A DNA stretch of 64,000 nucleotides from an uncultured Lachnospiraceae bacterium (GCA_946566685.1 CAMNXA010000006.1:14699-78698), one strand, 5' to 3'; shown: positions 5,352 through 53,371, counted from the first letter of the stretch. Program-made: numbers and translations. The notes: a model not told the origin generated them from the letters alone.

Positions 5352-6008
5352 CTACCTGAAATAATCCAGCCTGCGCTCGATATAATTAAACAACAGTGTC
5401 AGAATACCCACAAATGCCAGATAGAACACGCCCGTGTAGAAAAGGGGCCAAGTAATGCCCTGACTCTTCATAAAGGAATAGCCGGCAAAGGTCAGTTCAT
5501 AGGCGGCAATGATACGCGCCAGGGAAGTATCTTTCACCAATGTCATGACTTCATTGGACATAGGCGGCACCACTCTCTTGATCATCTGCAACAGCGTAAC
5601 CTTGAAAAAAATCTGGCTCTTGGTCATGCCCAGCACTTCTCCTGCCTCCCGCTGTCCCACCGGCACCCCTTCGATGCCGCCGCGGAAGATTACGGAGAAA
5701 TAGCAGGCATAATTGATGCTGAAGGCCACCACCGTAGCCGTGATCCGCCCCGACTCACTGCCGTTCCAGATGTTATGGCCAAGCCACAGGCCGGGGCCGT
5801 AAAAGATAATAATCAGCTGTAACATCAAGGGTGTGCCCCGGATGATCCACACCAATGTCTGTATCAATCCACGAAGCAGTCCCCACCTGCTCATCACCCC
5901 AAAAGACAGGACCAGTCCCAGAGGCAGTGAAAAGAGCAAGGTGAAAATAAATATTTCAAAGCTGGTCCAAAGCCCGTCCAGCAAAGACAGCGTAACACTC
6001 CAAAACAT
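5352..6008 (-). CDS. amino acid ABC transporter permease (His/Glu/Gln/Arg type)
   Basis: It has a multi-TM profile and the EAA-like loop REAGEVLGMTKSQIFFKVTLLQMIKRVVPPMSNE. Confidence 0.9.
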   Translation of the reverse strand: MFWSVTLSLLDGLWTSFEIFIFTLLFSLPLGLVLSFGVMSRWGLLRGLIQTLVWIIRGTPLMLQLIIIFYGPGLWLGHNIWNGSESGRITATVVAFSINYACYFSVIFRGGIEGVPVGQREAGEVLGMTKSQIFFKVTLLQMIKRVVPPMSNEVMTLVKDTSLARIIAAYELTFAGYSFMKSQGITWPLFYTGVFYLAFVGILTLLFNYIERRLDYFR

Positions 6009-6067: not shown

Positions 6068-6880
6068 TTATTTATTCGGCACCACAATCACCTGCGCATT
6101 ATTGCAATAAGGATTCGTGCACTCCATTGCCTCTTTCACTTCATTGGTCAATGTCATGCCGTTCCACACCACATCGATATTTTTAGATTCCAACTCCATA
6201 CTCTTATTATCCCAGTCGATGATCACAAACTGTGCTTCCACACCCAGCTTATCTGCCACCACACGAGCCATGTCCGCATCAAAACCGATCCACTCTCCGG
6301 AAGCATCTTTATAATCCATGGGCTCAAACTCCGTGATGCCTACGATGAGAGAACCTTTACCCTGAATATAGGCCACATCACTGTCCGAAGCGGAAGCCGT
6401 ATACTCCGCAGCCGCCTGCTCTACCAATGCCTCCTGCACACCATAGGTGGTCGCAATCTCTTTCATGGATCCGTCCGCATAACTTTCCGCAAACACGGCA
6501 TTGATATAAGAAGCCAGGTCAGAACCCTTGCGGCATCCCACTCCATATTCTTCTGTCGTCAGCTCATCCGTATGTACCAGGCCGGGATAACTGGTGCCTT
6601 CCCCAATCATGGCACCCGCCATCAAAAGGTCGATGATTGCCGCATCCGAAGTACCGGACGCCACCTCCATCAGGGCATCGGCCTGGGATGCCACGGAATT
6701 GGTCTTAAAACCTTTCTCCGCTGCCACCGCTTCCCCGGCGGAACCGGTCTCCACCGCATACACCAGATCCATACCGCCTTCGCTGGCAGATGCCGCCGCT
6801 TCTTTACTCCCGCCGCAGCCTGTCAGCACCGCACAGGACATGACAGATACCATTACCATCATTGCAAGTTTCTTTTTCAT
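6068..6880 (-). CDS. amino acid ABC transporter substrate-binding lipoprotein
   Basis: There is a signal peptide with lipobox VLTGCGG and a type-3 SBP pattern (...VVWNGMTLTNE...). The ATG follows GGAGGAGGA. Confidence 0.85.
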   Translation of the reverse strand: MKKKLAMMVMVSVMSCAVLTGCGGSKEAAASASEGGMDLVYAVETGSAGEAVAAEKGFKTNSVASQADALMEVASGTSDAAIIDLLMAGAMIGEGTSYPGLVHTDELTTEEYGVGCRKGSDLASYINAVFAESYADGSMKEIATTYGVQEALVEQAAAEYTASASDSDVAYIQGKGSLIVGITEFEPMDYKDASGEWIGFDADMARVVADKLGVEAQFVIIDWDNKSMELESKNIDVVWNGMTLTNEVKEAMECTNPYCNNAQVIVVPNK

Positions 6881-19089: not shown

Positions 19090-19102
19090 GGTTGTGTGTC
19101 TC

Positions 19103-34231: not shown

Positions 34232-34247
34232 TTATTGCCATGAAAAC

Positions 34248-34291
34248 TCTCAGGCAGACCATGGATAACTGAGTCTGCCTGAGAATTTTTA
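34248..34291 (+). terminator. rho-independent terminator of the GGDEF gene (probably bidirectional)
   Basis: TCTCAGGCAGAC-13 nt-GTCTGCCTGAGA (a 12-bp stem) is followed by ATTTTTA. Confidence 0.7.
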
Positions 34292-35279: not shown

Positions 35280-35297
35280 CTGAACTCCTCCTACTTT

Positions 35298-36254
35298 TCA
35301 TAGGTTAATCCGTTGATAAACTTTCTCATGCGCAGCCAAGCTTGTATTATCCATATACTTCTCAGCAATGCGCAGGGCGCTGTCCCTGATCCTATTCCTT
35401 AAATACTCCGGCTCCAGAAGCTCTACTTTATCCCGAAAAGTAAGAAGCCAGGTGAGCAGTTCCTCCCTGTTTGTATAATCCGCCTGAAACAGAAGTTTGC
35501 CCTCCGCCGTTTCCTGAAAACAGCCTGTCCCGAATTCCTCCACCAGCCGCCATTTACATGCCGGTTCAAAGAGCGCTTTTACCCGAATCCCGCCCGGAAA
35601 AATCTTCTCATTATCCAGATCCGGCATGGGCACCTGTCTCTTGATAAATTTCAGTTCTGTAATGCGGACTTTATCCATGCGGTTTAATTTAAACAGACGA
35701 AATGCCTCCTTTGTCCTGCAAAAGCCCCACACATACCAGTTCGACCAGCGAAATATCAGATAATATGGTTCTATACAGCGAAGCGACTCTCCGCTGGGTG
35801 AATAATAAAAAAACTCCAACTCCCTGCACTTTTCAATCGCCGTGCGTACCAGTTCAATCTTCGGGGCAAGGGATTCTTTATACCAGGAAGACAGATCGAT
35901 GAGCACGGACTGGTCGCCCATCATGAAATCGGAATAGCCTGCGGAAAGCTTCTCCATCAGTTTTCCATAGCGGTTCGTGCCATTTACACTGTCAAGGCTT
36001 CTGAGCCCTGCAAGGATATCCATCATTTCCGCATTGGTGAACAGCGTCCTGTCCACTCGGTAACCTTCCATGATCGAAATACCGCCGCCTGCTCCCTGCC
36101 TGGTCATGATAGGAATCCCCGCCCTGCACAAATCTTCAATATCCCGGTTGATCGTCCGTCTGGAAACCTCGAACTGTTCCGCCAGATAAGGCGCCGTAAC
36201 CGTATCCATCTGCAACAAGATGGACAGGATGCCAAGCTGTCTGTCGATTTTCAT
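35298..36254 (-). CDS. YafY-family (HTH + WYL domain) transcriptional regulator
   Basis: The HTH is LAEQFEVSRRTINRDIEDLCRAGIPI. The WYL region is YYLIFRWSNWYVWGFC. Confidence 0.85.
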   Translation of the reverse strand: MKIDRQLGILSILLQMDTVTAPYLAEQFEVSRRTINRDIEDLCRAGIPIMTRQGAGGGISIMEGYRVDRTLFTNAEMMDILAGLRSLDSVNGTNRYGKLMEKLSAGYSDFMMGDQSVLIDLSSWYKESLAPKIELVRTAIEKCRELEFFYYSPSGESLRCIEPYYLIFRWSNWYVWGFCRTKEAFRLFKLNRMDKVRITELKFIKRQVPMPDLDNEKIFPGGIRVKALFEPACKWRLVEEFGTGCFQETAEGKLLFQADYTNREELLTWLLTFRDKVELLEPEYLRNRIRDSALRIAEKYMDNTSLAAHEKVYQRINL

Positions 36255-36296
36255 TTGTTCCCTTTCTTACATATCATATTCATATTATACACGCCT

Positions 36297-36322
36297 AAAC
36301 AGGACATCTGTATGTCATGTTT
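36297..36322. promoter_or_regulatory. candidate operator (imperfect inverted repeat) upstream of the WYL regulator gene
   Basis: AAACAGGACAT-ctgt-ATGTCATGTTT has 11-bp arms with 1 mismatch. It lies 43-68 nt upstream of the ATG at 36254. Confidence 0.3.
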
Positions 36323-36514
36323 GGGTGATAAATTAATTGAAACAATATATCTCTCTAAAAATCCGCAATTTTATCCAAGTCTGTTTTCACGCTTTCTCTT
36401 ATAATGACAACATATAGTTTCGGACAGCCCTCAGACAATACACAGCCTGCATAGTATCTGTATATCTGTCTGTACATACCTCTGTCCGCCCAAGACAATA
36501 AGGAGGAAAGTACA

Positions 36515-36970
36515 ATGTCTCAACAAAATTCAGAAAAGACCAATCAGGAAAAAGGAAACATTATGAATCAAACTGCTTTGCGGTCACTGTTTGAAAGCTT
36601 CGACAGCGGTTCCCTCAAACTGCCATCAGGAAACACTGCATTCTCCGACCTTCCCTGGTCGAAACATCCCGCCTTTGAGGGCGTGGAACTCAAACATATC
36701 GTCACCGCCAAAGATACGCAGGGGCAGTTCAGCTATCATCTGGTGCGCATTGCGCCGGGTAAAAGCATTAAGACCCACATCCATGAGACCCAGCTGGAAA
36801 CCCATGAAGTCATTGCTGGCTCCGGTGTCTGTATCAATGAAGATACTGAAATCATCTATGAACCCGGAACGATTTCCATCCTGCCTGCCGGTATCCCTCA
36901 CGAAGTAAATGCGGGAAAGAAAGGATTGTATCTGTTTGCAAAATTTATCCCGGCATTGGAAAACTCTTAA
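36515..36970 (+). CDS. cupin domain protein
   Basis: The cupin motifs are ...HIHETQLETHEVIAGSG... and ...PAGIPHEV. AGGAGG precedes the ATG. Confidence 0.8.
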   Translation: MSQQNSEKTNQEKGNIMNQTALRSLFESFDSGSLKLPSGNTAFSDLPWSKHPAFEGVELKHIVTAKDTQGQFSYHLVRIAPGKSIKTHIHETQLETHEVIAGSGVCINEDTEIIYEPGTISILPAGIPHEVNAGKKGLYLFAKFIPALENS

Positions 36971-37577
36971 CCACTTTCTTATATTCCCCTGGCGTTAATC
37001 TGACAATCTTATGAAAACACCGGTCGAAGTGGCTCTGGTCGCAAAACCCTGCGGCGTAAGCCGCTTCGACTACACTTCGCCCTTCTTCCAGTAGTTTCTG
37101 CGCTTTCCTGACCCTGCACTGTATCTGAAACTGGTGCGGCGTCAGGCCGCAGGCATTTTTGAACTTCCTGATCATATGATAGGGGCTTAGTGCAATGCTT
37201 CCGGCCATGTCTTTTATGGACAATGGCAGCTGCGGTGTATTGGCAATCAGTTGCTTTAAACGCATGGCATCGGTATTTTCCTGCCCCTTTTCAGATAATA
37301 TGACCGGAACCGGTATACACATGGTTATGATTGAATAGGCCTTATCCTCCGCCGGCTCTAAGGCGTGAGGTATGTCCTGCCCTATATAAAACCATTCCCC
37401 TGCATCATAGATTCTTTTCTGTCCGCCGCAGATGACACAGACACTTCCCTCCTGAATGAATCCCACCACCACATGCTCCGCATGGGTATGCACCGGATAG
37501 GATTTGTGAAAATTCTCACAATGAATATAGGTTATCTCCTTTTTGCCTCGATAATATATAATCCTTTCATGCATCAT
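36945..37577 (-). CDS. AraC-family transcriptional regulator (cupin + HTH)
   Basis: It has ...YPVHTHAEHVVVGFIQEG... and the C-terminus IKDMAGSIALSPYHMIRKFKNACGLTPHQFQIQCRVRKAQKLL. Its 3' end overlaps the cupin gene by 26 nt. Confidence 0.85.
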   Translation of the reverse strand: MMHERIIYYRGKKEITYIHCENFHKSYPVHTHAEHVVVGFIQEGSVCVICGGQKRIYDAGEWFYIGQDIPHALEPAEDKAYSIITMCIPVPVILSEKGQENTDAMRLKQLIANTPQLPLSIKDMAGSIALSPYHMIRKFKNACGLTPHQFQIQCRVRKAQKLLEEGRSVVEAAYAAGFCDQSHFDRCFHKIVRLTPGEYKKVVKSFPMPG

Positions 37578-37785
37578 TTTCTCCCAGCCCTTCAACATTC
37601 TTGCAAAATATGGTCTGCTAAAATTCGGTCCTTTTTTCTTTCCCATTATGTAAGGTTTCTAGTCATGATAGTATTATTTTCTATCACTTTGGAAAGTTTT
37701 GCAACAGGGTTTGCCAAAATATTTTTCAACCAAATGAACTGGCCCAACGGCTCTCTTCTTTACCTGGGCCGCCCAAACTCATAGT

Positions 37786-38157
37786 TTGAAAAATCATCAT
37801 ATTTATAGTGGTAATTTCGTTTTGAATGTGATAGACTTATCTCAGATAGATTTGGCAACGGAAGAGGATAAAAAATACCACATTGATAAATGGGCTAAAT
37901 TCTTTAAAGCCAACACCTGGGAGGAGGTCAGAAAAATGGCAGAACAGAACGAACATTTACAGGAAGCAGCCAGAAGCATCTTCCATTTCAGTGCAGATGA
38001 CCAGATTCGAAAGATGTGCCGCGATCGAATAGAATATCATCAGGATCTTCGCAATTATGAGCGGTTCATTGCAAAGCAGGAGGATATTATCGCAGATTTA
38101 CGTTCTCAGGTTCAGACATTAACCGCCGAAATTAATGAACTAAAATCCAATTTATAA
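37786..38157 (+). pseudogene. C-terminal remnant of an Rpn/PD-(D/E)XK-type recombination-promoting nuclease (putative transposase family)
   Basis: ...FVLNVIDLSQIDLATEEDKKYHIDKWAKFFKANTWEEVRKMAE... matches only the C-terminal third of this family. There is no nuclease core upstream, the ORF has a non-ATG start, and the patch is AT-rich. Confidence 0.55.
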
Positions 38158-38164
38158 TTACATG

Positions 38165-38203
38165 TAAATCAAAAGAGCCGTTTACTGAATCCTGCGGCTC
38201 TTT
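38165..38203 (-). terminator. terminator closing the long minus-strand array
   Basis: The minus strand reads AAAGAGCCG-14 nt-CGGCTCTTT followed by TGATTT, 29 nt after the stop at 38232. Confidence 0.55.
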
Positions 38204-38231
38204 CCTATATGCCTGTTTTACTTCTAACCTG

Positions 38232-38441
38232 TCAGCACTGCTGCTCTTCCGCCAGCCCATAAATCTGGTACAGAGATAGTATATTCTGGTACATCAGCTT
38301 CCGAGACATCAACTGCTGATAGGTTACCGTCTTTACTTTCCCTTCTGCTTTCATCTTATCCATGGAAGACAAAATCCCGGCATACTCTTCCTGCACTGCG
38401 GCAAGCATCTTTTCAAACGCTTCCAAACGCTTTTCATCCAT
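38232..38441 (-). CDS. small hypothetical helical protein (69 aa)
   Basis: A clean ORF 29 nt downstream of the 5'-nucleotidase gene. I recognise no motif. Confidence 0.4.
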   Translation of the reverse strand: MDEKRLEAFEKMLAAVQEEYAGILSSMDKMKAEGKVKTVTYQQLMSRKLMYQNILSLYQIYGLAEEQQC

Positions 38442-38470
38442 ACACAGCTTCTCCCTTTCCGGCTCTGCGT

Positions 38471-40150
38471 CTATTTTACCACAATTCGCCCCTGCGGCAC
38501 AGCATATTCTTTTCCGATTGTTCCACCCAGATGATTGGCTATGTAATCGATCAAAACCTGATAATCCATAGTTCCCTCATCCAAGATCAGAGGATTGTCC
38601 ATAAACATCCGCTGGCCGTCTCCGCCCCGTTTGAGCAGGTAATTCTGGGAAGCAAGCGTATAAATCCTGTCAGGGTCAATGGGCGCATAACTCCCATCTT
38701 CCTGAAGTACCCTGACATCCTTTACCCGGCGCACACTCCCGCAGGATACAAACATTTCATTCTCATCCATAGCGACCGAGGACTCCACGGAAGTATCCAC
38801 CGTAAAGGTAATCCCCGACACCTGGAGGAATCCGCCGTTCTCTCCCACGGCATTTGTGCCATCGCTAAACTCCGCCTGTACTGCCCGGTTCGCCATCTCC
38901 AAAGCATCCAGTATCTCCTGTCCGCTTACCTGGGCAACGCAAAGGGTATTTCCGTAAGGATGTACGGCAAGCAGATCCCCATAGGTAATATCGCCCGCCG
39001 GCAGATTGGCCCGGATACCGCCGCCATTTACCATGGCAATATCCGCCCCGGAGACAATACGGCAGGCATCGGCACAGAAATCTCCCAGGTTAGTCTCCCG
39101 GCTTCTCACTATACGGATACCATCCTTAGAGGCAATGGACAAGTCTGCTTCACTGTGTCCTGCAACCCGCTTCATATCTTCCTCGAAACTGCCCAAAACC
39201 TCATCGATATAACATTCTGTTTCCTCGTCCTTCTCCGGATATGTAATCAGTCCCGTGGTAATGGTTCCGCCTGGGGTTATCGTAAGCTGTCCAATATAGT
39301 TTAATTCCGTTCCCGTTGAAGACAGTAATACCTCACCGCCGCTTTTATTCTTTACAACCTGACAGGGAATCACACTGTGGGAATGGCCGTCCAGCACAGC
39401 ATGCACCCCTTCCGTATGCTCGATCAGATTAATAGAACGAAACGGTGCAGAATCCTCATCCACACCCAAATGTGTCAGGAGAATGACATACTCTACCCCT
39501 TTCTCCAGACATTCATCCACCGTGGCCTGCACCTGTGTATAAAATTCTTCCCCATTATCCCCGACATAAAAATCATAGACAAATTCCCCCGCCTCATCCA
39601 TAAAATAGGTCGGCGTGGAACTGGTAATGTTCTCCGGGGTGCAGACGCCGACAAAGGCGACCTCCACATCTCCGTATCTTTCTATACGATAGGGCGAAAC
39701 TTCTTTCAGGGCGCTTTCCCCTGTACCGGTATATCGTACATTACAACACAGATACGCTGCCTCTGCTTCCTGTATAAGCCGGGAAAGCCGTTCCATGCCA
39801 TAGTCAAATTCATGATTGCCGGGCACAGCCAGATCATAGCCGATGCGATTCATCATCTGCACAGGATACTCGCCTTCTGACAAAAGGCCGATTACATCCC
39901 CCTGTATGGCATCCCCACAATCCACCAGGGTCACATAGGGTGTTTTCTCTTCCATATATTTCTGATAAGCCGCCAATCCCGCATAACCGATGTTGTCCTC
40001 CACGGCACAGTGGACGTCATTGGTATAGAGAATGACAATATCCTCCTGCTCCCGTCTGGCCGTCCCACAGCTGCATAACAATAAAAGAACTAATATTATT
40101 ACAAGCAAAACATTGATAGTACGTCTTCTGTATTTCATCTCTATCATCAT
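38471..40150 (-). CDS. secreted bifunctional metallophosphatase / 5'-nucleotidase (UshA-like) lipoprotein
   Basis: It has YTNDVHC, DCGDAIQG, VPGNHEFDYG and the lipobox LLLCSCG. The start is one of three ATGs between 40138 and 40150. Confidence 0.88.
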   Translation of the reverse strand: MMIEMKYRRRTINVLLVIILVLLLLCSCGTARREQEDIVILYTNDVHCAVEDNIGYAGLAAYQKYMEEKTPYVTLVDCGDAIQGDVIGLLSEGEYPVQMMNRIGYDLAVPGNHEFDYGMERLSRLIQEAEAAYLCCNVRYTGTGESALKEVSPYRIERYGDVEVAFVGVCTPENITSSTPTYFMDEAGEFVYDFYVGDNGEEFYTQVQATVDECLEKGVEYVILLTHLGVDEDSAPFRSINLIEHTEGVHAVLDGHSHSVIPCQVVKNKSGGEVLLSSTGTELNYIGQLTITPGGTITTGLITYPEKDEETECYIDEVLGSFEEDMKRVAGHSEADLSIASKDGIRIVRSRETNLGDFCADACRIVSGADIAMVNGGGIRANLPAGDITYGDLLAVHPYGNTLCVAQVSGQEILDALEMANRAVQAEFSDGTNAVGENGGFLQVSGITFTVDTSVESSVAMDENEMFVSCGSVRRVKDVRVLQEDGSYAPIDPDRIYTLASQNYLLKRGGDGQRMFMDNPLILDEGTMDYQVLIDYIANHLGGTIGKEYAVPQGRIVVK

Positions 40151-40173
40151 CCTATTGTGCTAACACCGTCTTC

Positions 40174-40578
40174 TTATTGCAGAAAACGAAACCTGCCCTC
40201 GGTCTCTTCCACCAGCACCGACTCCAAATCAAGTTTCTCTCGGATTTCTTCCGCCAGGCTCTCCACCTCGTCTTTTTCCACAAAAATCATCTGATAAATG
40301 AGAGCCTCATTCTCATGTACGGTTCCCGCCTCCACATACGCGCCATTAGCCGTATATTCGGTATACCCAAGTCCTCTGTCCGTGATCAGCTGCCGAATCT
40401 TCTCTCCCGCCTCCTGCGTTGAAAGAACCTGTGCACCCGTCTGTGCATTATTTAAGCCACAGTAGATTTTAAAATATTTCTCCTGCGTTTCGCCGTCCGC
40501 ATTGGTTTTGCCGCAGGCAGTGAGTGCCATCATTGCCACTGCCAAAATCATCACTGTCTTCTTTAATCTACTTTTCAT
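40174..40578 (-). CDS. small lipoprotein, unknown function
   Basis: MKSRLKKTVMILAVAMMALTACGK is a signal peptide with a lipobox. GGAGG lies upstream of the ATG at 40578. Confidence 0.6.
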   Translation of the reverse strand: MKSRLKKTVMILAVAMMALTACGKTNADGETQEKYFKIYCGLNNAQTGAQVLSTQEAGEKIRQLITDRGLGYTEYTANGAYVEAGTVHENEALIYQMIFVEKDEVESLAEEIREKLDLESVLVEETEGRFRFLQ

Positions 40579-40600
40579 TGCATCCTCCATCTTAATCTGC

Positions 40601-41287
40601 TCAATCATCCGTCATTGTAAAATACAAATACCCGTCTCCATAATAGGGCAGTTCATCAATCGTATACAGTCTGGCCGCATAATCGATCGCACTGTTCTTT
40701 TTCATCTGCTGCAAAGAATCCTTTCCCAGTTGAAACATGACACCCTCATAGGTAACGGGACAAGTCACTGCAATCGCCTTATAGACGGTACTGCCCTCAT
40801 TTCCCGACATAAACTCCACTGATATATCATAGGATTCGTCTCCGTTCTGGATTGTCACAAACCCCTCCTGGGCCGTATGTTCTCCCTCCAGCTGCTCGTT
40901 CACCGCACTGTCAAACTCAAAGCTGGTTCCCGTATATCTGTCAAAAGCACTGCACCAGAAAAGAATGCCATCACCCGTACAACCACTTGCATCAATGGCA
41001 AATTGTGCGCTCACTTTCTTAAATCCGTCTGCCACACCCTCAGTAGCCTCTGCGATGGATACCTTCACATCCGCCGTAAAGTCCCCGGTGATCTCACCGC
41101 TTGCCGAATCAAAGCCACCCATCTCCACCTGACAATCTCCCTGCGGTGTGACGGTAATTCCCTGCTTGGCACTCCATCCCTCTTCCTTTTTCTTCAAATC
41201 CTTATCATCAGTGCCGCACGCGCATAATAATACAACAGCCAGCACAACCAGCATACCCAGCTGCCACCTGTTTCTCCCTGTTATCAT
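40601..41287 (-). CDS. lipoprotein, unknown function
   Basis: ...LVVLAVVLLCACGTDD contains a lipobox. I prefer the ATG at 41287 (9 nt after AGGAG) over 41296. Confidence 0.6.
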   Translation of the reverse strand: MITGRNRWQLGMLVVLAVVLLCACGTDDKDLKKKEEGWSAKQGITVTPQGDCQVEMGGFDSASGEITGDFTADVKVSIAEATEGVADGFKKVSAQFAIDASGCTGDGILFWCSAFDRYTGTSFEFDSAVNEQLEGEHTAQEGFVTIQNGDESYDISVEFMSGNEGSTVYKAIAVTCPVTYEGVMFQLGKDSLQQMKKNSAIDYAARLYTIDELPYYGDGYLYFTMTDD

Positions 41288-41310
41288 CACACTCATCTCC
41301 TGCTATTTCC

Positions 41311-41718
41311 TCAGATACTCTTCCTGATCGTTAAAATATTCTGTCCGTCCTTATATTCATAAGCAATATCATCCATGGTCTTTTTGACCATATAGATGCC
41401 AAGGCCGCCGATTTCCCGCTCCTCCGCAGAAAGCGTAATGTCCGGGTCATCTTCTGTGAGTGGATCATAAGGAACGCCGTTATCAATAAAAGTAATCACC
41501 ACAGACAAAGGATCATTCAACACCTCCACCCGCACCGTAGCCGGACCCACTTCCGGATTATAGGCATAGTGGGCGATATTTCCAAATAACTCGTCTATGG
41601 CAATATCAATCTGCATCTGCGCCTTCATCGGGCAGTCCATCGCTTCCAGTTGCTCATTCACAAAAGCAGTGACCTCCGCTATATTTTCAACTATCGCATC
41701 GACTGTCAGTTCCTTCAT
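41311..41718 (-). CDS. RsbW/SpoIIAB-type anti-sigma factor serine kinase (HATPase_c_2)
   Basis: The N-box is DELFGNIAHYA. It also has ITFIDNGVPYDPL and the G-box EIGGLGIYMVKK. The length is 135 aa. Confidence 0.8.
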   Translation of the reverse strand: MKELTVDAIVENIAEVTAFVNEQLEAMDCPMKAQMQIDIAIDELFGNIAHYAYNPEVGPATVRVEVLNDPLSVVITFIDNGVPYDPLTEDDPDITLSAEEREIGGLGIYMVKKTMDDIAYEYKDGQNILTIRKSI

Positions 41719-41741
41719 CCCGTTTTCTCCTTTACCCCTGC

Positions 41742-42239
41742 TTACACTTCCAGCAGTCTGCGTAATTTCTTAAGTGCACTGCCATGGATCAACTTAGCAT
41801 AACTATAGGAAATATGCATGATATCCGCAGTCACTTTCAAGGTATGTCCGCTATAATAATGCAGAATAATCAAATCCCTCTCCCGCTTCTCAATCCGTAA
41901 AAGGGCATCCGCCAGACGTTCCAACATCTCTTCAGAAAGAACCTGTTCTTCAATTCCCTTATCCTCCGCAGTCAGTTCCGTCAACTCGCTAAACTGCTTC
42001 GAAGTACGATAATAATCTATCACCACATTGCGCGTGATCGTATAAATCCAGGTCGAGACGGACGCTTTGCCTGCATCAAAAGAAGACAGGGCCGCAAACG
42101 CTTTCACAAACACGCCGGAAACCAGATCCTCCACCATGTGAGGATCTGGTACTTTCCCGGAAATATAACGGGTCACTTTTTCCTTATAGTCCAGATAAAT
42201 CTGTTCCTGTAATTTTTGATTCTCAACTGTTTCAGACAT
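41742..42239 (-). CDS. ECF-like sigma-70 family RNA polymerase sigma factor
   Basis: The region 2 pattern is ...DLVSGVFVKAFAAL..FD.....STWIYTITRNVVIDYYR. Region 4 is RERDLIILHYYSGHTLKVTADIMHISYSYAKLIHGSALKKLR. I take the ATG at 42239; the Arg-rich upstream extension is discarded. Confidence 0.85.
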   Translation of the reverse strand: MSETVENQKLQEQIYLDYKEKVTRYISGKVPDPHMVEDLVSGVFVKAFAALSSFDAGKASVSTWIYTITRNVVIDYYRTSKQFSELTELTAEDKGIEEQVLSEEMLERLADALLRIEKRERDLIILHYYSGHTLKVTADIMHISYSYAKLIHGSALKKLRRLLEV

Positions 42240-42429
42240 GGGGATGATCCCCCGTGGCCGCACCCGGCCTGGGCGAAGCCGGCACTTCCCCTGCCGCATT
42301 GACAAATTCCAGGTCATCATCCGACAGCGGCACACAGTATCCGGATGCCGCCTGCCCGATGACCGCTGCAAGCCGCTTATTGTTCGCAAACTGTTGATAA
42401 TCAAACAACCCTCTCAATACCCTGTCCAT
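42232..42429 (-). CDS. small ORF (65 aa) with a double-glycine-leader-like motif, translationally coupled to the sigma factor gene
   Basis: MDRVLRGLFDYQQFANNKRLAAVIGQAASGYCVPLSDDDLEFVNAAG|EVPASPRPGAATGDHPHV. An AAAGG lies 6-7 nt before the ATG. Its stop overlaps the sigma ATG in ATGTCTGA. Confidence 0.4.
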   Translation of the reverse strand: MDRVLRGLFDYQQFANNKRLAAVIGQAASGYCVPLSDDDLEFVNAAGEVPASPRPGAATGDHPHV

Positions 42430-42480
42430 AGACTTACCTTTCTCACATATCCGCTGCTATGCGATCGGTGTTAACCTGTT

Positions 42481-42657
42481 TTATCGTCTTTTACCATTGG
42501 GTTCATCCCAGTTCCATCTTCCACCGCCAGTTACCTGATCCAGGGCATCGTCACTCAAAGCCTCTGTCTTAGGTGTGATGATAAGTCCTCCGTTTACATC
42601 CTTCAGGGCATCGTCCTTTACTCTGTTTTCCTGGTTCTGATTCATCTTGTCTGTCAT
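42481..42657 (-). CDS. 58-aa precursor-like peptide with two double-glycine motifs (peptide B; not in the ORF track)
   Basis: My own translation gives MTDKMNQNQENRVKDDALKDVNGG|LIITPKTEALSDDALDQVTGG|GRWNWDEPNGKRR. AGGAGG lies 8 nt upstream of the ATG. Confidence 0.55.
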   Translation of the reverse strand: MTDKMNQNQENRVKDDALKDVNGGLIITPKTEALSDDALDQVTGGGRWNWDEPNGKRR

Positions 42658-42820
42658 TGTCTTTTCCTCCTTTTTTCCATATCTTTATCTGATTCATCTT
42701 TTCCAGCGGAACTTATCCCGCTAACCACCATACTGTTACAAAATACTTGCTGCCTCTCCTGCATGCATTGTCTATGTACTTTGCGCTCTCATGCCACCAC
42801 TCACATCTTCCAGCGCCTCG

Positions 42821-42985
42821 TCATCTATCGGTTCTGCCCCCCCCCCCTGAAATATTCGGGGTTTTACCCTCTGTCTGCTCAATCCATGATCTGGTTTCGT
42901 TCTGTATCCTCATACCGCCGTTCACCTCATCCAGTTCTTCCTCTTCCAACAAAATACCCTGTACATTTTTTTCTTTATGATCCAT
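42821..42985 (-). CDS. 54-aa precursor-like peptide with a double-glycine leader (peptide A); apparently frame-split at a G11 tract
   Basis: MDHKEKNVQGILLEEEELDEVNGG|MRIQNETRSWIEQTEGKTPNISGGGGRTDR*. GGAGGTG lies 5 nt upstream of the ATG. It is the internal part of the 111-aa track ORF. Confidence 0.55.
   Translation of the reverse strand: MDHKEKNVQGILLEEEELDEVNGGMRIQNETRSWIEQTEGKTPNISGGGGRTDR
42837..42847 (-). repeat. G11 homopolymer inside peptide-A coding sequence
   Basis: I counted 11 consecutive C on the plus strand (42837-42847). Confidence 0.9.
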
Positions 42986-43070
42986 CTTTTCACCTCCGTT
43001 ATTGACTATACCGCTGCTTACACTTTGATACGAATCACTTCCGCCGCGGTCTAATAAAATCGTAAATTTA

Positions 43071-45284
43071 TTAAAATAATGTGGTTTTCCCCACATGCTG
43101 TACATCATCAAGCCGTTGTCTTGCCACCAACTCCGAGAAGTACCCACCCTTATCAATCAATTCGTCATAGGCGCCGTCCTCGATAATCTTCCCCTTGTCC
43201 AGCACAATGATCCTGTCGCACTGCCTGATGGTGGACAGGCGGTGGGCAATCACGATCCTGGTGCATTTTAACCTGTCAAGGGACTCCGAAACCGTCTTCT
43301 GCGTCAGGTTATCCAGGGCGGAAGTGGCCTCATCAAACATGAGAATCTTCGGTTTGGGGGCGATGGCGCGGGCAATCATCAGCCGCTGTTTTTGGCCGCC
43401 GGAAATGCCGCCTGCCCCCTCGGCAATCATGGTATGCATCCCCATGGGCATCCGCCTGATATCCTCCGCCATCCCCGCAAGTTCCGCCGCTTCCCAGGCC
43501 TCATCCAAGGTCAGCCAGGGCGCGGAGATGGTGATATTGGAATAAATATCTCCCAGAAACAGACTGCCGTTTTGCATCACCACACCAATCCGGCGGCGCA
43601 GGGACTTTAAGTCAATCGTGGTCAGGTCTTTGCCATCATAATAGACCGCGCCTTTCTGGGGCGTCTCAAATCCCAGCATCAGCCGCATCAGCGTGGACTT
43701 GCCGCATCCCGTTGCGCCCACGATGGCCACGTACTGGCCGGGACGGATTTTTAAGGAAAGATTGTCCAGAATCAGCGGCATATTTTCCTTGTAACGGAAG
43801 GACACATTGTTTAACTCTATCCCGCCGGAAAGTCTGGTAATCACCTGTTTGTTCTCGGCAATCTCCGGCACGTTTTCGAGAATCGGTCCGACCATTTCCA
43901 TCATGGGTCTAATCTGCGCAATGGTGAGCGCCACAGAGGACAGGGTCATAAAAGCCCCGGAGACCATGCCGTAAGCGGTATAAAAAGCATAGTAGTCCGC
44001 CACCGATATCTTCGTGCGGATGGCGGCATAATATATCACAAAAGTGCCCACCAGCGAAATGGCCGTGGAGATAACGCCGTTTATCTTGATCAGCATCGGC
44101 GGGTCATAGGCCAGCTTTGCCTGCTTCGCATAAAGATTGCCCCATCTGGCAAAGGCCCGCTTCTCCGCACCGGAGAGTTTGATCTTCTGTACCCCGGAAA
44201 TCATGGCATAGGACATACCGCCCTCCTTGGAAGCTAACTCCATCTGCCGCCTTACCAGTCTCATCTGCATCAGGGAAGTCAGCACCGTCACCAGGAACGT
44301 CACCCCGATCACCAGCAGAGCCGGCGTCACAAGAGCCGGCGCATATACAAATATCTGCGAGATATATAGCAGGGAAAAGAGGGACGTCAGGCCGGCGGAA
44401 AGCGCCACCGACACCAGCATCGTACACAGTTCCCCCACATACTGCATTCGGGAAGAAAGTTCCCCGGCGCTGTAATCCTTAAAAAAATCCGCCGGCAGAG
44501 ACATCACCCGGGACATCACCGCCGCCTGCACATGCACATCCAGCTTCGTTTCCATCCGGGCCATGACCAGTTGTTTTACCGCTGCAAAAAGTGCTGAACT
44601 GATGGCAACACAGACCATAAACACCAGGATGGACGATAACAGCCGCATACTGCCGGACGAAATCACCTCAGAGAACAAAATATGATTCAGCTTCGGCGCA
44701 AACATTCCCATCAGCGTGACCACGCATACCATCGCCAGAATCATGATAAAGTCCTTGACAGAGAAGGTCTGTAGCATATAGCGGATCAAATCCGAAAGAC
44801 CCAGCTTTTTCAGGGGAAACGGCTTATAGAAAGCAATCGCCTCCTCCTCGAACAACTCCTGGTTGTTATGATCAAACCTCTCTCTCTTCCCGCTTGCCGC
44901 ATCCAGATAGCTGTAACCGGAAATTCCGGCAGGGAGAAAAGCCGTGACGGCGCCATCGCTTTTACGCACCCCCAGCATCGCCCCGTCCGCATCCCGATAC
45001 CAGCCATCCGTCAATTTAACGGTTCTTCGCATAATGCCGTTGGGCCTTAGCAGAAATTCCAACTGCTCATTCATATCTTTGATACTGTCCGGTATCTCCC
45101 TGGATTTCACATGGTAGTATTTCAGAATCTCCTCCATGGCGTTTCTTGCCGTCTGCCTAGAATCGTTCAATGCCACAGATACACGGGATCCCATGACTGC
45201 ACCCGCAATGTTGACGAAGGCATCCTCAAGCATTTCGTTATCATTCTGTTTTCGTAAGCGGATCTGCTCGTCAAACCAGCCCAT
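43071..45284 (-). CDS. NHLM-type bacteriocin-system ABC transporter, ATP-binding/permease subunit without active peptidase (ABC2)
   Basis: It has a 6-TM domain, Walker A GATGCGKST, the signature ISGGQKQRLMIARA and FDEATSALD. The N-terminal ~160-aa domain has no CG... cysteine motif. GGGAGG lies 6 nt before the ATG. Confidence 0.85.
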   Translation of the reverse strand: MGWFDEQIRLRKQNDNEMLEDAFVNIAGAVMGSRVSVALNDSRQTARNAMEEILKYYHVKSREIPDSIKDMNEQLEFLLRPNGIMRRTVKLTDGWYRDADGAMLGVRKSDGAVTAFLPAGISGYSYLDAASGKRERFDHNNQELFEEEAIAFYKPFPLKKLGLSDLIRYMLQTFSVKDFIMILAMVCVVTLMGMFAPKLNHILFSEVISSGSMRLLSSILVFMVCVAISSALFAAVKQLVMARMETKLDVHVQAAVMSRVMSLPADFFKDYSAGELSSRMQYVGELCTMLVSVALSAGLTSLFSLLYISQIFVYAPALVTPALLVIGVTFLVTVLTSLMQMRLVRRQMELASKEGGMSYAMISGVQKIKLSGAEKRAFARWGNLYAKQAKLAYDPPMLIKINGVISTAISLVGTFVIYYAAIRTKISVADYYAFYTAYGMVSGAFMTLSSVALTIAQIRPMMEMVGPILENVPEIAENKQVITRLSGGIELNNVSFRYKENMPLILDNLSLKIRPGQYVAIVGATGCGKSTLMRLMLGFETPQKGAVYYDGKDLTTIDLKSLRRRIGVVMQNGSLFLGDIYSNITISAPWLTLDEAWEAAELAGMAEDIRRMPMGMHTMIAEGAGGISGGQKQRLMIARAIAPKPKILMFDEATSALDNLTQKTVSESLDRLKCTRIVIAHRLSTIRQCDRIIVLDKGKIIEDGAYDELIDKGGYFSELVARQRLDDVQHVGKTTLF

Positions 45285-45299
45285 AGGTTACCTCCCATA

Positions 45300-47477
45300 C
45301 TATGCACTTGCCACCAACTCCGTATACGCCCCGCCCTTGGCATACAGTTCCTCATGTGTGCCCCGTTCTATCACTTCTCCCTGCTCCAGCACAATGATCT
45401 CATCACAGTCCCTTATCGTGGAAAGGCGGTGGGCCACCACGATGCAGGTAATGCCCCTGTCCTTGATGGCCTTGACCACCTCATATTCGGTCTTGGCATC
45501 CAGTGCCGATGTAGCCTCGTCCAGGATAATGATGGTGGGATCCTGAGCCAGCACCCTGGCAATCTCCATGCGCTGCCTCTGACCACCCGAAAGATCCTTG
45601 CCGCCCTCCGTGATCTTATAGTTATAGCCGCCGTCCCTCAGCATGATATCCTCATGCAGCCTGGCATCCCTGGCCGCCATGATCATTTCAAAGTCCTCAA
45701 TCGAACTGTCCCACATCTTGATATTGTTGGCGATGGTATCTTCAAACAGGATAATGTCCTGATCCACCACCGCCAGGGATCCTGTGAAAATGCTTCTATC
45801 AATATCTTTCATCGGTTTACCGTCAAATAAAATCTCACCACTCCAGGGTTTGTACAGTCCCGATATCAGTTTGGAGAGTGTGGATTTCCCACAGCCGGAG
45901 GCGCCCACAAAGGCAACCCGGCTTCCCGTTTTCAAAGACAGGCTGAAATCCCTGATCAAAGGTTCGGCCAGTCTGGAATAACCAAAAGTCACGTTTCTCA
46001 GTTCCACGTTGCCCGACAGTTTGCCGTATTCCATGTCCTCTCCCGCTTCCTCATCATCAAATTCCACATCCACGGGATATTCCATCACATCCTCCACCCG
46101 CTCCATCTGCGTGCGCATCTCCTGCAAGGTCTGCCCCGCCGAAATCAGTGTCTGTGCCGGCGCGCTGAAAGATAAAAGGAATCCTTGAAAAGCCATGATC
46201 ATACCCACCGTAAACTGCCCCTGCATGGTAAGGTATGCACCAATGAGCAAGACCGCTATATTCGCAAAAGAGGCTGTCATCTCCGGGATTGCACCCAGAT
46301 ATTGGTTCAGACGGACAAACTTTACCTGCTGGGTATTTACACTGGCCTGATACCCCGCCCATTTTTCAAAGTATCCGTTCTCCGCGCCGCTGGCCTTAAT
46401 GGTCTCGATCATCTCGATACCGGAGGCAGTGGCCCCCGCCAGCCTGCCCGCATCACGCATCTGCACACGGGTGATATTCACCCGCTTCCTGGAGATGATA
46501 TTGGACACGAAAAGGTTGATCACGATCGAAGATAAGCTGATAAGAGCCAGTATGACACTGTAGCGAAGCATGACAATCAAATAGAACACCATCATCACCG
46601 TATTGAGTACAAGCGGCGCCAGCGTATTCACCAACTCCTGAGCCACGGAAGCGTTCATCGTCTGCCGCTGTTGGATATCTCCTGCCATCCTCTGGGCAAA
46701 AAATTCCATCGGCATACGGAGTACTTTCCACATATAGCCCGTACTGCCCACCACGGCCAGCCTGCCGTTAATCCGCAGGGAATAGACCGCTCGGATCCAT
46801 TCCACCACCAGCTGCAAGATTCCGATCCCGCCCAGCACAAGCAGAAACGGCGGCGCCCAGCCAGGATTGCGGCCCGTCAGCAGTCTGTCCAGAAATATCC
46901 GGGAAAAAACAGGATTGATAATCCCCAGCAGGGACGTGATCATAGTCGTCAAAACCACAAAGGCGATAGCGCTCCCCGCGCCTTTTAATCTCTTTTTCGC
47001 AAAGGAGAGCATACTCTTTTGTCTGCCGTCCGGTGCAAAGTCCTCTGCCGGCTCAAACATCAGACAGATGCCCGTAAAAGCCTCGTCAAAATCCTGCATG
47101 GTCACCGCATAGTTTCCTTTGGCAGGATCGTTTAAGTACGCTTTATTTTTCTGAAAACCGTTTAATACCACAAAGTGGTTGAAATTCCAATGGATGATGC
47201 AGGGAAAGGTTCCGTTCTGCTTTAGGTCTTCCGGCTCATAGCGGTACCCCTGGGCCTTAAGCCCATAACTTCTGGCCGCCCGCAGTACATTTTTGGCATT
47301 GGAACCGTCCCTGGATACGCCGCAGTCCGCACGCACCTGCTCCAGAGGAATCCATTTTCCATAATAGGCCAGAATCATGGTCAGTGAGGCGGCACCGCAC
47401 TCCAGCGCTTCCATCTGCATGACCACCGGCACCTTCGCCACGCCGTTTTTGACAGGCTTATTTATCGCCTTACCCAT
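45300..47477 (-). CDS. C39-peptidase-domain ABC transporter (double-glycine leader cleaving/export ATPase, ABC1)
   Basis: The C39 motifs are VVMQMEALECGAASLTMILAYYG and ...IIHWNFNHFVVL. It also has GASGCGKST, LSGGQRQRMEIARV and LDEATSALD. I prefer the ATG at 47477 (5 nt after GAGGTG) over 47498. Confidence 0.9.
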   Translation of the reverse strand: MGKAINKPVKNGVAKVPVVMQMEALECGAASLTMILAYYGKWIPLEQVRADCGVSRDGSNAKNVLRAARSYGLKAQGYRYEPEDLKQNGTFPCIIHWNFNHFVVLNGFQKNKAYLNDPAKGNYAVTMQDFDEAFTGICLMFEPAEDFAPDGRQKSMLSFAKKRLKGAGSAIAFVVLTTMITSLLGIINPVFSRIFLDRLLTGRNPGWAPPFLLVLGGIGILQLVVEWIRAVYSLRINGRLAVVGSTGYMWKVLRMPMEFFAQRMAGDIQQRQTMNASVAQELVNTLAPLVLNTVMMVFYLIVMLRYSVILALISLSSIVINLFVSNIISRKRVNITRVQMRDAGRLAGATASGIEMIETIKASGAENGYFEKWAGYQASVNTQQVKFVRLNQYLGAIPEMTASFANIAVLLIGAYLTMQGQFTVGMIMAFQGFLLSFSAPAQTLISAGQTLQEMRTQMERVEDVMEYPVDVEFDDEEAGEDMEYGKLSGNVELRNVTFGYSRLAEPLIRDFSLSLKTGSRVAFVGASGCGKSTLSKLISGLYKPWSGEILFDGKPMKDIDRSIFTGSLAVVDQDIILFEDTIANNIKMWDSSIEDFEMIMAARDARLHEDIMLRDGGYNYKITEGGKDLSGGQRQRMEIARVLAQDPTIIILDEATSALDAKTEYEVVKAIKDRGITCIVVAHRLSTIRDCDEIIVLEQGEVIERGTHEELYAKGGAYTELVASA

Positions 47478-47499
47478 TTCTTCACCTCGTTTTGTCATA

Positions 47500-47561
47500 A
47501 AGTAAATTTGCTTCGCAAATTAACTTTGCGAGATCCGCTTCGCGGACTCGGATAAGCGGAG
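47500..47561 (+). repeat. structured intergenic repeat, copy B (a partial third unit lies at 47573-47585)
   Basis: It matches 13752-13813 at 60 of 62 positions. It lies between the HlyD-like gene and the C39-ABC gene. Confidence 0.8.
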
Positions 47562-47597
47562 CACTTTCTTAGAATTTGCTTCGCAGCCTCGTAAACC

Positions 47598-48101
47598 CTA
47601 ATCATTTTCCGCAGTAGTGTTTAACAAAAACGACATCGGAGAAATACTCTCTGTTATCATGGACACCTCATAGACACCGTCAGGAAGCGTGGTCTTTGCT
47701 CTCACTTCATACACCCACTCCCCGGCCTGAAACCCGCCCAGATACAACAGATAGGCATCCGCACCCTGTGGGATTGCCACAGGCGCTGTCCCGATATCCA
47801 TAATCTGAAAGGACTGTTCTGCCACCGTAAGTTCCATCCCCGCTCCCACAGCCTTCCTCACCGCCTCGATATCGCTTTCCCTGACATAACAGGTAAACAC
47901 GCCGTCCTCACATGTCCCCGCGCTCTCAAGCCGAGTATCCAGATGCCCGAAAATGCCCCAGACGCACACGCCCACAAGCAGAATGATCACCGCCAGAAGC
48001 ACCATCCATACGCCCAGGCTTGATACCCGCACATAGTCATCCAGCTGCTCCGGTGAGGAAATCCGCTGGATACTGGATTTGCGAAATAATTGTCCGTTCA
48101 T
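47598..48101 (-). CDS. short HlyD-like secretion adaptor of NHLM-type bacteriocin systems
   Basis: The N-terminus LFRKSSIQRISSPEQLDDYVRVSS plus one TM helix is the hallmark start of this adaptor family. At 167 aa it is much shorter than canonical HlyD proteins. Confidence 0.7.
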   Translation of the reverse strand: MNGQLFRKSSIQRISSPEQLDDYVRVSSLGVWMVLLAVIILLVGVCVWGIFGHLDTRLESAGTCEDGVFTCYVRESDIEAVRKAVGAGMELTVAEQSFQIMDIGTAPVAIPQGADAYLLYLGGFQAGEWVYEVRAKTTLPDGVYEVSMITESISPMSFLLNTTAEND

Positions 48102-48123
48102 CTGTCTTCCTCCCCCATCCGCC

Positions 48124-49503
48124 TTACTTCTCCGCCACGCCTACCTGGAACTTATATTTCTTCTGAAAACGGTCATGGTTAAAGGCATTGACCACATCCC
48201 AGCCGTTACAGTGCCCGGAACACATAAAGCTCTCACATCTGGACAACATGTAGAGAGCATAAAAATAGTTGACGGTGGTATCCTCCAGCGCCGCTTCATA
48301 CGCTTCCCCGCTCTTTTCCTGCTTCTCCAGGTCACTGATCAGCGCCACATCCTTAAAATCGCTGACCCGATGTCTTTCCTGCGCAATGACGCGTATCTTA
48401 CCCTGAAACTCAGCCTGCATCACATCCAGAATATCCTGATCCTCGGTAGCCAGGAAAATGGCATCATATCGATCCTCCTCCATCCACTCATGTATCATGG
48501 GCAGCATTTCGTCCACCGTAGCCATCTTGCGGGCGCCGGTCATCCTGGAGACCACATAGTCCGTTCCCCGCATGAGGATTCCCAGCATCCGTCTGTTGCC
48601 GATGACTGCCTCCTCATACTCTTTCAATTCCTGAATAAAACTGTCGCTTAAGATACTGTCATCAAAATCCGCATTGCATTTCGCCACGAAATGAGTCGGT
48701 ACCAGCGGCACCGTGTTGGTCACATAGATGGTATTGGTCTCATCGGAATCCTCACAGGCCACATCCAGGTTAAAATACCGCTCCAGCATGTCATCCTTGT
48801 ACCGGGTGCTGTCCCGTTTCAACACTGTTTTCCAGCCTAATTGCTTAAAGGCATTATTAATCCTTGTATAATGTGCCAGGATCGCACCGATTCCTGCCAC
48901 CATACCCAATCCCACTTCCACATACTTCACATCAGACAGCGGGATATCCATCAGCCACTGCCAGATAAAGACATTGTTAAATAACGGGATCAGGCTGATG
49001 GAGCGAAAATCCGCACTGTTAAATCCCAGTGAAAACTGCTGCCCGCTGCGAAGGACATTCCCTTCCGCCCTGTCGGGGAGGTCTGTGGTCACATGCAGTC
49101 TCTCATGGGGTTCCACAAACCAGTAAATCCGTTCATCAGGAATCCACACTTCTTTCTCTGTGTAATCCAGGATAATCTTCGTCAGAACCACGCTGTACTC
49201 GTTAAGATCCTCAAACACGGCGCCGTTGTACTCCTGAAATACGTCCAGATATAAAGCTTCCCGATCCGTCTCATCGTACAGGTAATACGGGGGCAGCATC
49301 CTATATCCTTTCAGCACAGCCATATTGGGCGCCTGTTCATTATTTTCCATATAAATCAGGTCATAATCCTCCCCCTTGTCGTTTCTCACATGAAATCTGT
49401 TCTCGCCCTTCAGGACTGCCCGCAGTGCGTTGTGAAATACCTGGTCATTATGCCTTAAGGTCCTGCAATTCTCATTTTTATCCGCTTCTACAATCTGTAA
49501 CAT
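48124..49503 (-). CDS. hypothetical 459-aa protein; the C-terminal half has fucosyltransferase-superfamily-like motifs (tentative)
   Basis: A clean ORF with GGGAGG upstream. The motifs LGILMRGTDY (HxRxxD-like), AIFLATEDQD and DTTVNYFYALYMLSRCESFMCSGHCNG occur in the order seen in GT11/GT23/POFUT-like enzymes. The N-terminal ~280 aa are unassigned. Confidence 0.6.
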   Translation of the reverse strand: MLQIVEADKNENCRTLRHNDQVFHNALRAVLKGENRFHVRNDKGEDYDLIYMENNEQAPNMAVLKGYRMLPPYYLYDETDREALYLDVFQEYNGAVFEDLNEYSVVLTKIILDYTEKEVWIPDERIYWFVEPHERLHVTTDLPDRAEGNVLRSGQQFSLGFNSADFRSISLIPLFNNVFIWQWLMDIPLSDVKYVEVGLGMVAGIGAILAHYTRINNAFKQLGWKTVLKRDSTRYKDDMLERYFNLDVACEDSDETNTIYVTNTVPLVPTHFVAKCNADFDDSILSDSFIQELKEYEEAVIGNRRMLGILMRGTDYVVSRMTGARKMATVDEMLPMIHEWMEEDRYDAIFLATEDQDILDVMQAEFQGKIRVIAQERHRVSDFKDVALISDLEKQEKSGEAYEAALEDTTVNYFYALYMLSRCESFMCSGHCNGWDVVNAFNHDRFQKKYKFQVGVAEK

Positions 49504-49580
49504 GCGTTTTCCTCCCTTTTTGTTCTCTGGCTTTTATCGTCTACAGACAGACCAACTACTAACCGGCTTTATTGTTATCT

Positions 49581-53287: not shown

Positions 53288-53371
53288 AATGCTTCTCCTT
53301 TTCATTGTTATTGTGAAATTACTTCTGATGCTTTCACAGTCCGCACTTTCCTTCCGAAAACCATCACCGCG

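Follow-up and report, generated by a model that had tools for sequence, protein, structure and literature searches.

Genes that are turned on and off by homopolymeric tracts have been well studied in a few Gram-negative pathogens but hardly in gut Firmicutes. In Campylobacter jejuni, tracts of G9 to G11 switch at about 1e-3 per division, which is classical phase variation (PMC8355987). In the nap island of Neisseria gonorrhoeae, the ORF for NapC, a bacteriocin-like peptide, contains a homopolymeric tract and is 'off' in most sequenced strains (PMC11798529). The function of NapC is autolysis, and its switching has been taken for a phase-variable trait of a social or altruistic kind (PMC11798529). 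McpM (microcin PDI) of E. coli has two successive double-glycine-type leaders, which are cut first at G17/G18 and then at G35/A36 (PMC5311971).

We analysed peptide A, a small gene next to an ABC exporter in a 64,000-nucleotide stretch of DNA from an uncultured Lachnospiraceae bacterium (the window; all positions are counted from its first letter). Like the poly-G contingency loci of C. jejuni, Neisseria and Haemophilus (PMC8355987), it has an uninterrupted run within the ORF, with lengths that cluster near G9 to G11; a change of ±1 G toggles between a full and a truncated product, and several lengths occur in otherwise identical genomes. Unlike those loci, its host is a rodent-gut Clostridium (Lachnospiraceae-like), its target is a 70-aa secreted-peptide precursor rather than a surface or modification enzyme, and the C-terminal cassette alone is lost. 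As in NapC/NapR (PMC11798529), the homopolymeric tract lies in a bacteriocin-like peptide gene and an early stop removes the C-terminal part of the product. There is, however, no sequence relationship with NapC, whose host is Gram-negative and which has no second leader. With McpM (PMC5311971) the gene shares two double-glycine-type leader motifs in one precursor and ABC-mediated export, with cleavage predicted in our case. It differs from McpM in that the final core would be only 6 aa long (13 aa in the neighbouring peptide B), whereas mature McpM is large and contains cysteine; McpM has no homopolymer, and the two are unrelated in sequence.

The exporter resembles LahT (6mpz), PCAT1 (4ry2), ComA/ComC (8hf4) and the NHLP pair, and scored above the equivalog cut-offs of TIGR03796 and TIGR03797. 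Unlike NHLP/Nif11 substrates, peptides A and B have two leaders, and neither matched an NHLP/Nif11 model of NCBIfam or Pfam at E values up to 1. A further difference from those exporter systems is that no modifying enzyme is coded beside the peptides in the window. Literature searches for homopolymer phase variation in Lachnospiraceae, and for an exporter–sigma–peptide system of this type, returned nothing relevant. What is new, within the literature searched, is the combination of this host group with a two-leader architecture, each without an earlier example; the mechanism itself is already known, and Neisseria offers a precedent for the gene class.

Organization of the exporter–peptide locus

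The genes around peptide A lie on the minus strand in the order 167-aa protein, exporter subunit 1, exporter subunit 2, peptide A, peptide B, 65-aa protein, sigma factor and HATPase. The neighbours of peptide A are as follows.

47598..48101, minus strand: 167-aa protein, hydrophobic over a stretch close to the N-terminus (VWMVLLAVIILLVGVCVWGIF, taken from the sequence itself)
45300..47498, minus strand: ABC exporter subunit 1, with an N-terminal C39 double-glycine peptidase domain (Pfam Peptidase_C39, PF03412, 3e-35)
43071..45284, minus strand: ABC exporter subunit 2, without a peptidase domain (TIGR03797 score 745.7, cut-off 709.4; Pfam ABC_membrane and ABC_tran)
42481..42657, minus strand: peptide B, 58 aa, with two motifs in one frame (…KDDALKDVNGG, then LSDDALDQVTGG + GRWNWDEPNGKRR)
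42232..42429, minus strand: 65-aa small protein (LFDYQQF…LSDDDLEFVNAAG; from a family alignment), which overlaps the start of the sigma gene, co-occurs with it and is part of the conserved module
41742..42239, minus strand: ECF-type sigma-70 family factor, 165 aa (Pfam Sigma70_r2 and Sigma70_r4; TIGR02937 score 89.5, cut-off 42.9)
41311..41718, minus strand: RsbW/SpoIIAB-like HATPase_c_2 protein, 135 aa, anti-sigma kinase-like (Pfam)

Exporter subunit 1 scored 961.6 against TIGR03796 (cut-off 853.3). Its C39 domain is about 75% identical to LahT150 (PDB 6mpz), including QMEALECGAASL, and its catalytic cysteine motif was found with PF03412, TIGR03796 and the LahT150 alignment; at full length, the protein matches PCAT1 (4ry2) and ComA (8hf4). 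Given this degree of identity and these matches, it is very probable that peptides A and B serve as substrates for an exporter of the double-glycine processing type, and subunit 1 is presumed to be the enzyme that both processes and exports them. Both motifs of peptide B were kept in its orthologues (P0007 to P0011). The N-terminus of the 167-aa protein resembles the HlyD-like secretion protein of NHLP-type systems, with TIGR03794 matching residues 13–62 only. The protein is conserved beside the exporter, and homologues were found in 76 of the 90 loci searched. A scan for promoters and terminators near the peptides gave nothing above chance apart from one weak hairpin, resembling a terminator, where the gene for exporter subunit 2 (ABC2) ends.

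Reading frame of peptide A

Within peptide A, the following features were assigned from the sequence and its frames.

42772..42985, minus strand: peptide A gene, full span; with G10, a 70-aa precursor (MDHKEKNVQGILLEEEELDEVNGG / MRIQNETRSWIEQTEGKTPNISGGGAEPIDDEALEDVSGG / MRAQST)
42914..42985, minus strand: first double-glycine leader, residues 1–24, ending VNGG (weak hits of bacteriocin leader models)
42837..42847, minus strand: poly-G tract of 11 G (C11 on the plus strand), coding for a Gly-Gly-Gly linker
42821..42985, minus strand: peptide A as read in the window, the truncated 54-aa 'off' product (from the frames; P0004 is identical)
42772..42836, minus strand: second leader and C-terminal core, AEPIDDEALEDVSGG + MRAQST + TAG, out of frame in the window

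The original prediction was that the G11 run splits peptide A, and on re-reading both its coordinates and its two frames proved exact. From the ATG at 42985-42983, the frame as written codes for MDHKEKNVQGILLEEEELDEVNGGMRIQNETRSWIEQTEGKTPNISGGGGRTDR and ends after 54 aa at a TGA (42823-42821). This product comprises leader 1 (…LLEEEELDEVNGG), the middle segment and five junk residues. The adjacent frame (ORF 42772..42882) runs through ...GGGAEPIDDEALEDVSGGMRAQST to a TAG at 42774-42772, and with one G fewer peptide A becomes a 70-aa protein with this same end. Run length thus toggles between a full and a truncated product: the peptide has 70 aa with G10, 54 aa with G11 and 52 aa with G9, while G7 is again in frame with one Gly fewer. 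The in-frame length for the window lineage is G10, which is made up of three consecutive GGG Gly codons and the G of the next codon. Contingency genes carry an uninterrupted mononucleotide run of at least about 8 inside an ORF, and the G11 of peptide A is such a run. It separates the middle segment, which is variable, from the conserved second leader with its hexapeptide core (DEALEDVSGG followed by MRAQST).

The double-glycine leader pattern is present in two copies, LLEEEELDEVNGG and IDDEALEDVSGG, both of which match the …E-L-x-x-V-x-G-G pattern. Bacteriocin double-glycine leader models gave weak hits to residues 13–24, and leader 1 is kept in orthologues. Against TIGR01847 (bacteriocin_sig, cut-off 15.7), the 70-aa form scored 18.8, though no single matched stretch passes alone, and the 54-aa form scored 12.5, which is below the cut-off.

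Both motifs lie in one frame in the orthologues P0001 (96% identity, 70 aa), P0002 (83%, 70 aa), P0003 (75%, 70 aa) and P0006 (66%, 86 aa). P0012 is a further peptide A orthologue, and more forms from sister lineages were reached through peptide B. In an alignment of 11 lineages, D55–E59 and V61–G64 (DEALE.VSGG) were invariant and R66 and Q68 nearly so, while the N-terminus and the middle segment were variable or missing. The conserved segment downstream of the tract therefore reads DEALE.VSGG + [ML]R.QST, and from this alignment the segment put out of frame by G11 is the most conserved part of the protein. The out-of-frame DDEALEDVSGG had been judged unlikely to be a chance match, and it is indeed in frame in every orthologue that has an in-frame tract.

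Contigs from eight public rodent-gut runs were compared with the window over 42400-43100, and tract lengths were read from the assembled contigs, in which minority variants are lost. Five runs (X1, X2, X3, X4 and X5) had one base fewer than the window, giving G10, as did a rat run (X10, about 97% identical), so that an uninterrupted G10 occurs at the peptide A site in six independent public runs. Run X7 (about 98% identical) also had 10 bases but with a G-to-C interruption, GGGGGCGGGG, which is synonymous and keeps the long frame. In X6 there were two bases fewer (G9). Over 40 kb (34000-53999 and 1-20000), X1, X2 and X3 differed from the window by 0 SNPs, and the tract was the sole difference. 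X6 also equals the window across the stretches it covers, the tract apart. The exact 70-aa long form of this strain was found as P0019 on a Logan contig of 6321 nt; the X1 locus contig is also 6321 nt long. Relatives in the long frame had G5CG4 (X7, X24), G5AG4 (L082, L083), AGGGGAGGG (L098) or G7 (X16, X17).

Judged by the frames and the orthologues, the 70-aa form is the real peptide A gene. As predicted, one G fewer restores a two-motif precursor like that of peptide B, and both the in-frame orthologues and the six G10 runs agree with this. For annotation, the 54-aa ORF of this assembly is best treated as the truncated form of a 70-aa precursor gene that has a frameshift at its variable tract, the conserved product being located after the tract.

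No programmed recoding is required to explain the long form. Homopolymer runs can be slippery for ribosomes and polymerases, and G11 could in principle be the normal state, with a ribosomal +1 frameshift or RNA-polymerase slippage giving a regulated mixture of short and long products; leaky read-through from an off-frame allele is indeed plausible. However, most assemblies of the same strain already have G10 in the DNA itself, and orthologues with interrupted, non-slippery tracts code for the long form directly in frame. A recoding site should keep its out-of-frame arrangement in relatives, as in conserved frameshift genes, and the relatives of peptide A do not keep it. In addition, no Rfam family or element was matched at 40000-50000. 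As the normal allele already reads in frame, slippage programmed into translation or transcription, one of three mechanisms offered by the original prediction, is unsupported, and we regard it as highly improbable.

Length variation of the tract and its possible causes

Long G runs are rare in these genomes. The G/C runs in the window comprise 47 of length 5, 2 of length 6, 0 of length 7 and then single runs of 8, 10 and 11, and its longest A/T run is no longer than 7. The last three G/C runs are outliers from a steeply falling spectrum, and the tract exceeds what chance would give. The G10 at 6018-6027 and the G8 at 4294-4301 that had been noted earlier are both present. The accompanying remark that the genome tolerates such tracts holds in that the runs exist, but it is too weakly worded, as long G runs are otherwise almost absent. 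In 1.2 Mb over 110 related loci, all G/C runs of at least 9 (12/12) sit at the peptide A site. GGG makes up 21% of Gly codons, and GGG-GGG-GGG was used in 0 of the 6 other Gly-Gly-Gly tripeptides in the long ORFs of the window.

At this site, tract lengths from G7 to G12 were found in relatives, which are listed here by lineage.

Window lineage: in frame, G10 (X1–X5, X10, L081); off frame, G11 (window) and G9 (X6, L089)
Window lineage, interrupted tract: in frame, G5CG4 (X7, X24); off frame, none
Rat relative, about 94% identical: in frame, G7 with one Gly fewer (X16, X17); off frame, none
P0003 lineage: in frame, G10 (L084); off frame, none seen
P0008 lineage: in frame, G10 (L107, L108); off frame, G9 (L109)
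P0009 lineage: in frame, none seen; off frame, G10 in a TCG context (L110), where the other frame reads GGGVPVEDEALEAVSGGMRVQST
P0006 lineage: in frame, T9G11 (about 11 contigs); off frame, T9G10 (about 20 contigs), G12 (P0022) and G9 (P0023)

In the window, P0006 and P0008 lineages, differing run lengths were found on near-identical backgrounds, as expected for contingency loci. Among 14 loci of the P0006 lineage, for example, the 1485 nt flanking the tract were identical except for one SNP, and the T9G10 contigs of this lineage include deposited NCBI MAGs and contigs of more than 50 kb. Where the tract is interrupted (P0002, P0010, X7) or the segment is missing (P0007, P0011, L097), the lineages were always in frame. 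Contigs from low-depth runs (X8, X9, X11, X12) broke at the tract, and the other off-frame assemblies of the window lineage were short or of low depth (X6, depth 4.6; L089, 1.5 kb).

Could the G11 of the window be a consensus error, with an extra G introduced by sequencing or polishing into a true G10, an ordinary 70-aa ORF, and with the other off-frame contigs being errors of low coverage? The five runs with an identical strain background (X1–X5) are all G10, the tract is the only difference from X1–X3 in 40 kb, contigs often break at long G runs, and the off-frame assemblies X6, L089, L109, L110 and L090 are short or have depths of 2.6–4.6. Against this, the window agrees with the Illumina contigs at every other base of the 40 kb, including the G10 at 6018-6027 in X3 and X7, and it is therefore not a noisy assembly. 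This second tract is a weak control, as it is crossed by only those two assemblies (both G10); the contigs of X1, X2 and X5 stop there or just short of it, and none from X10 spans it. The P0006 lineage argues more generally against error, as it is off frame on about 20 independent contigs and in frame on about 11, with four length states. Random error round one true length cannot give such a pattern. Because the window is base-perfect over 40 kb and off-frame tracts are in the majority in well-covered contigs of a sister lineage, we consider a consensus error unlikely. The assembly error proposed among the original mechanisms could apply to this one window, yet it is less supported than slippage, and the off-frame majority of the P0006 lineage speaks against it.

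We favour the view that peptide A carries a contingency-type tract, subject to slipped-strand changes, within a two-leader double-glycine precursor, and that the window holds a +1 'off' allele (probability roughly 0.7). In this mechanism the G run would be a slipped-strand hot spot at which G is gained or lost far faster than any neighbouring base changes, through replication slippage on G9 to G12 as in classical contingency loci. The +1 variant of the window (G11) would shift the frame so that translation ends five codons on. The conserved C-terminal cassette (leader 2 and the hexapeptide) would be removed, while leader 1 and the middle segment would stay. Because the run changes in length and G11 shifts the frame, the locus behaves like a phase-variable gene, with the window 'off'. 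Among the three mechanisms first put forward, slipped-strand variation has the best support, with several lengths on near-clonal backgrounds in three lineages. The observations that might have spoken against a variable tract also turned out otherwise: the G11 of the window had no support elsewhere, orthologues do have the tract, and the downstream segment is conserved. We infer that the tract-length differences arise in vivo by replication slippage, and switching would then be reversible.

A slipping tract need not be a switch. G11 might be a real mutation at a neutral hot spot, that is, a loss-of-function allele of a dispensable social trait on its way to becoming a pseudogene. In the P0006 lineage, frequent off-frame tracts occur together with a nonsense codon in the peptidase gene and a truncated sigma gene; the exporter–peptide locus seems to be decaying there, and the length changes in this lineage may be neutral rather than adaptive. 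Elsewhere, the middle segment has been deleted (L097) or is missing altogether (P0007, P0011); in all, the tract is interrupted in three lineages and the segment lost in three. Conservation of the tract is also within neutral expectation. Four-fold sites of the adjacent ABC gene are still 62–75% identical between lineages, from which the chance of keeping the three wobble G's is about 0.24–0.42 per lineage, and retention of the tract is therefore not itself evidence of selection. On the other side, long G runs are otherwise purged from these genomes and yet the peptide A run persists in at least five lineages. Both gains and losses of G were seen, so that reversion is mechanistically available, and in the window lineage the rest of the exporter–peptide locus is intact. 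We therefore view a neutral hot spot without a switch as possible but doubtful.

Within the preferred reading of a slipping contingency-type tract, a more specific proposal is that the poly-G is a selected contingency switch, which turns on and off the production of [ML]R[ATV]QST, a conserved hexapeptide that would be secreted after its release at the second double-glycine site. We offer this only tentatively. Both GG sites would be cleaved, and the exported product would be a small signal-like peptide; a signal is suggested rather than a toxin because the cores are short and hydrophilic (6 aa and 13 aa), there is no apparent immunity gene, and the sigma/anti-sigma pair is conserved. If true, the tract would split the population into producers and non-producers of a signal that is linked to a dedicated ECF sigma/anti-sigma module, and gut commensal Clostridia would have their first case of a peptide-signal precursor under repeat-mediated phase variation. 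The switch would then turn a two-leader into a one-leader precursor instead of abolishing the product. As the affected gene codes for a secreted peptide and lies beside an exporter and a dedicated sigma factor, the trait is a social one for which mixtures of producers and non-producers should matter. A LahT-type protease has already been characterised and offers a means of testing the family.

The peptide family and other features of the region

The peptide family had 7 representatives among 1.84 billion proteins, and a JGI metagenome scan gave one locus. The family is small and restricted to the rodent gut, and its members are two-leader double-glycine precursors whose conserved cores are very short. 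A search of genome contigs with ABC2 found relatives of at most 74% identity, none of them with two-leader peptides, and many distant loci with the same exporter have Nif11-like precursors. In the P0007 and P0011 lineages, the precursor has one cassette, consisting of the conserved end only (45–47 aa). Because these precursors hold only that end, we infer that the C-terminal cassette carries the main function. The middle segment would then be a dispensable insert and may be a cassette that arose by duplication (GG-MRIQNET resembles GG-MRAQST). Membership of GRASP_targ_2 (PF27893) was considered and rejected, since the hit was only faint, scores were weak (TIGR04497, 22.9 against a cut-off of 32) and no ATP-grasp gene lies nearby.

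A sister lineage was present in the same samples (X2, X4, X25, X17 and X19 contigs over 42712-42825; L091-L096). There, peptide A has one cassette and 45 aa, MADGKDKEISKTRIADEELEQAHGAEPVDDEALEDVSGGMRTQST, and lacks the tract; the locus also codes for a third peptide (…EDEALDGVTGGMRATPKLSFSYVTQR) and for a DHO_dh plus 4Fe-4S protein of 505 aa, possibly a modifying enzyme. The peptide A gene of the P0010 lineage is polymorphic: an in-frame deletion of 42 nt (about 2720-2929; L097, L099 and L100 against L098 and L101) takes most of the middle segment including the tract site and leaves 55 aa instead of 69 aa.

In the P0006 lineage, the C39 peptidase gene has an AAG-to-TAG nonsense change in three of four samples (L085, L086 and L088; about 1380-1400 in L085) and is intact in L087. 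A second homopolymer as the cause of the split gene in L085, L086 and L088 was ruled out by this nonsense change. The sigma gene of the same lineage (L085-L090, L111-L119) is a 115-aa fusion of an FDYQRF N-terminus with sigma region 4.

The 65-aa protein of the window belongs to a family of about 60–65 aa with the consensus MxxxLxxLFD[YF]Q[RK]FxxNxRLxxxI…L[SD]D[DE][DE]L[ED]xV[NSA]AAG, followed by a short variable hydrophilic tail. Members were found across L001-L110 (e.g. L031 9319, L032 9338, L044 9529), adjoining a sigma homologue in 39 of the 90 loci searched, and the family matched nothing in Pfam or NCBIfam. The C-terminal half is double-glycine-leader-like, but with an almost invariant AAG. 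The protein could be a leader-mimic regulator or an anti-sigma factor handled by the exporter.

The RsbW-like HATPase_c_2 protein is 67–81% identical across distant loci, while the exporters of those loci are only 63–74% identical. In L002-L066 (mostly about 3870-4280), its gene is usually directly upstream of the gene for the 167-aa protein; in the window lineage it has moved downstream of the sigma gene.

The G10 at 6018-6027 (minus strand) is intergenic, between a substrate-binding-protein gene (6880..6068) and a permease gene. It precedes an ATG at 6013-6011 by 4 nt and the start codon of the permease ORF (6008..5352) by 9 nt, at the position expected for a ribosome-binding site. This tract might vary in length too.

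An intergenic repeat of about 60 nt, AAGTAAATTTGCTTCGCAAATTAACTTTGCGAGATCCGCTT.GCG.ACTCGGATAAGCGGAG, with internal palindromes, occurs in the window at 47499-47597, where Rfam gave no match, and at 13749-13796. Contig depth over it was 10–30 times the depth of its flanks, and in many contigs it is linked with unrelated sequence, so that it is a high-copy dispersed element in these genomes or metagenomes. At 49581-52994 (minus strand), a 1137-aa ORF fuses two SBP_bac_3 domains, a BPD_transp_1 domain and an ABC ATPase domain into an unusual all-in-one amino-acid ABC importer.
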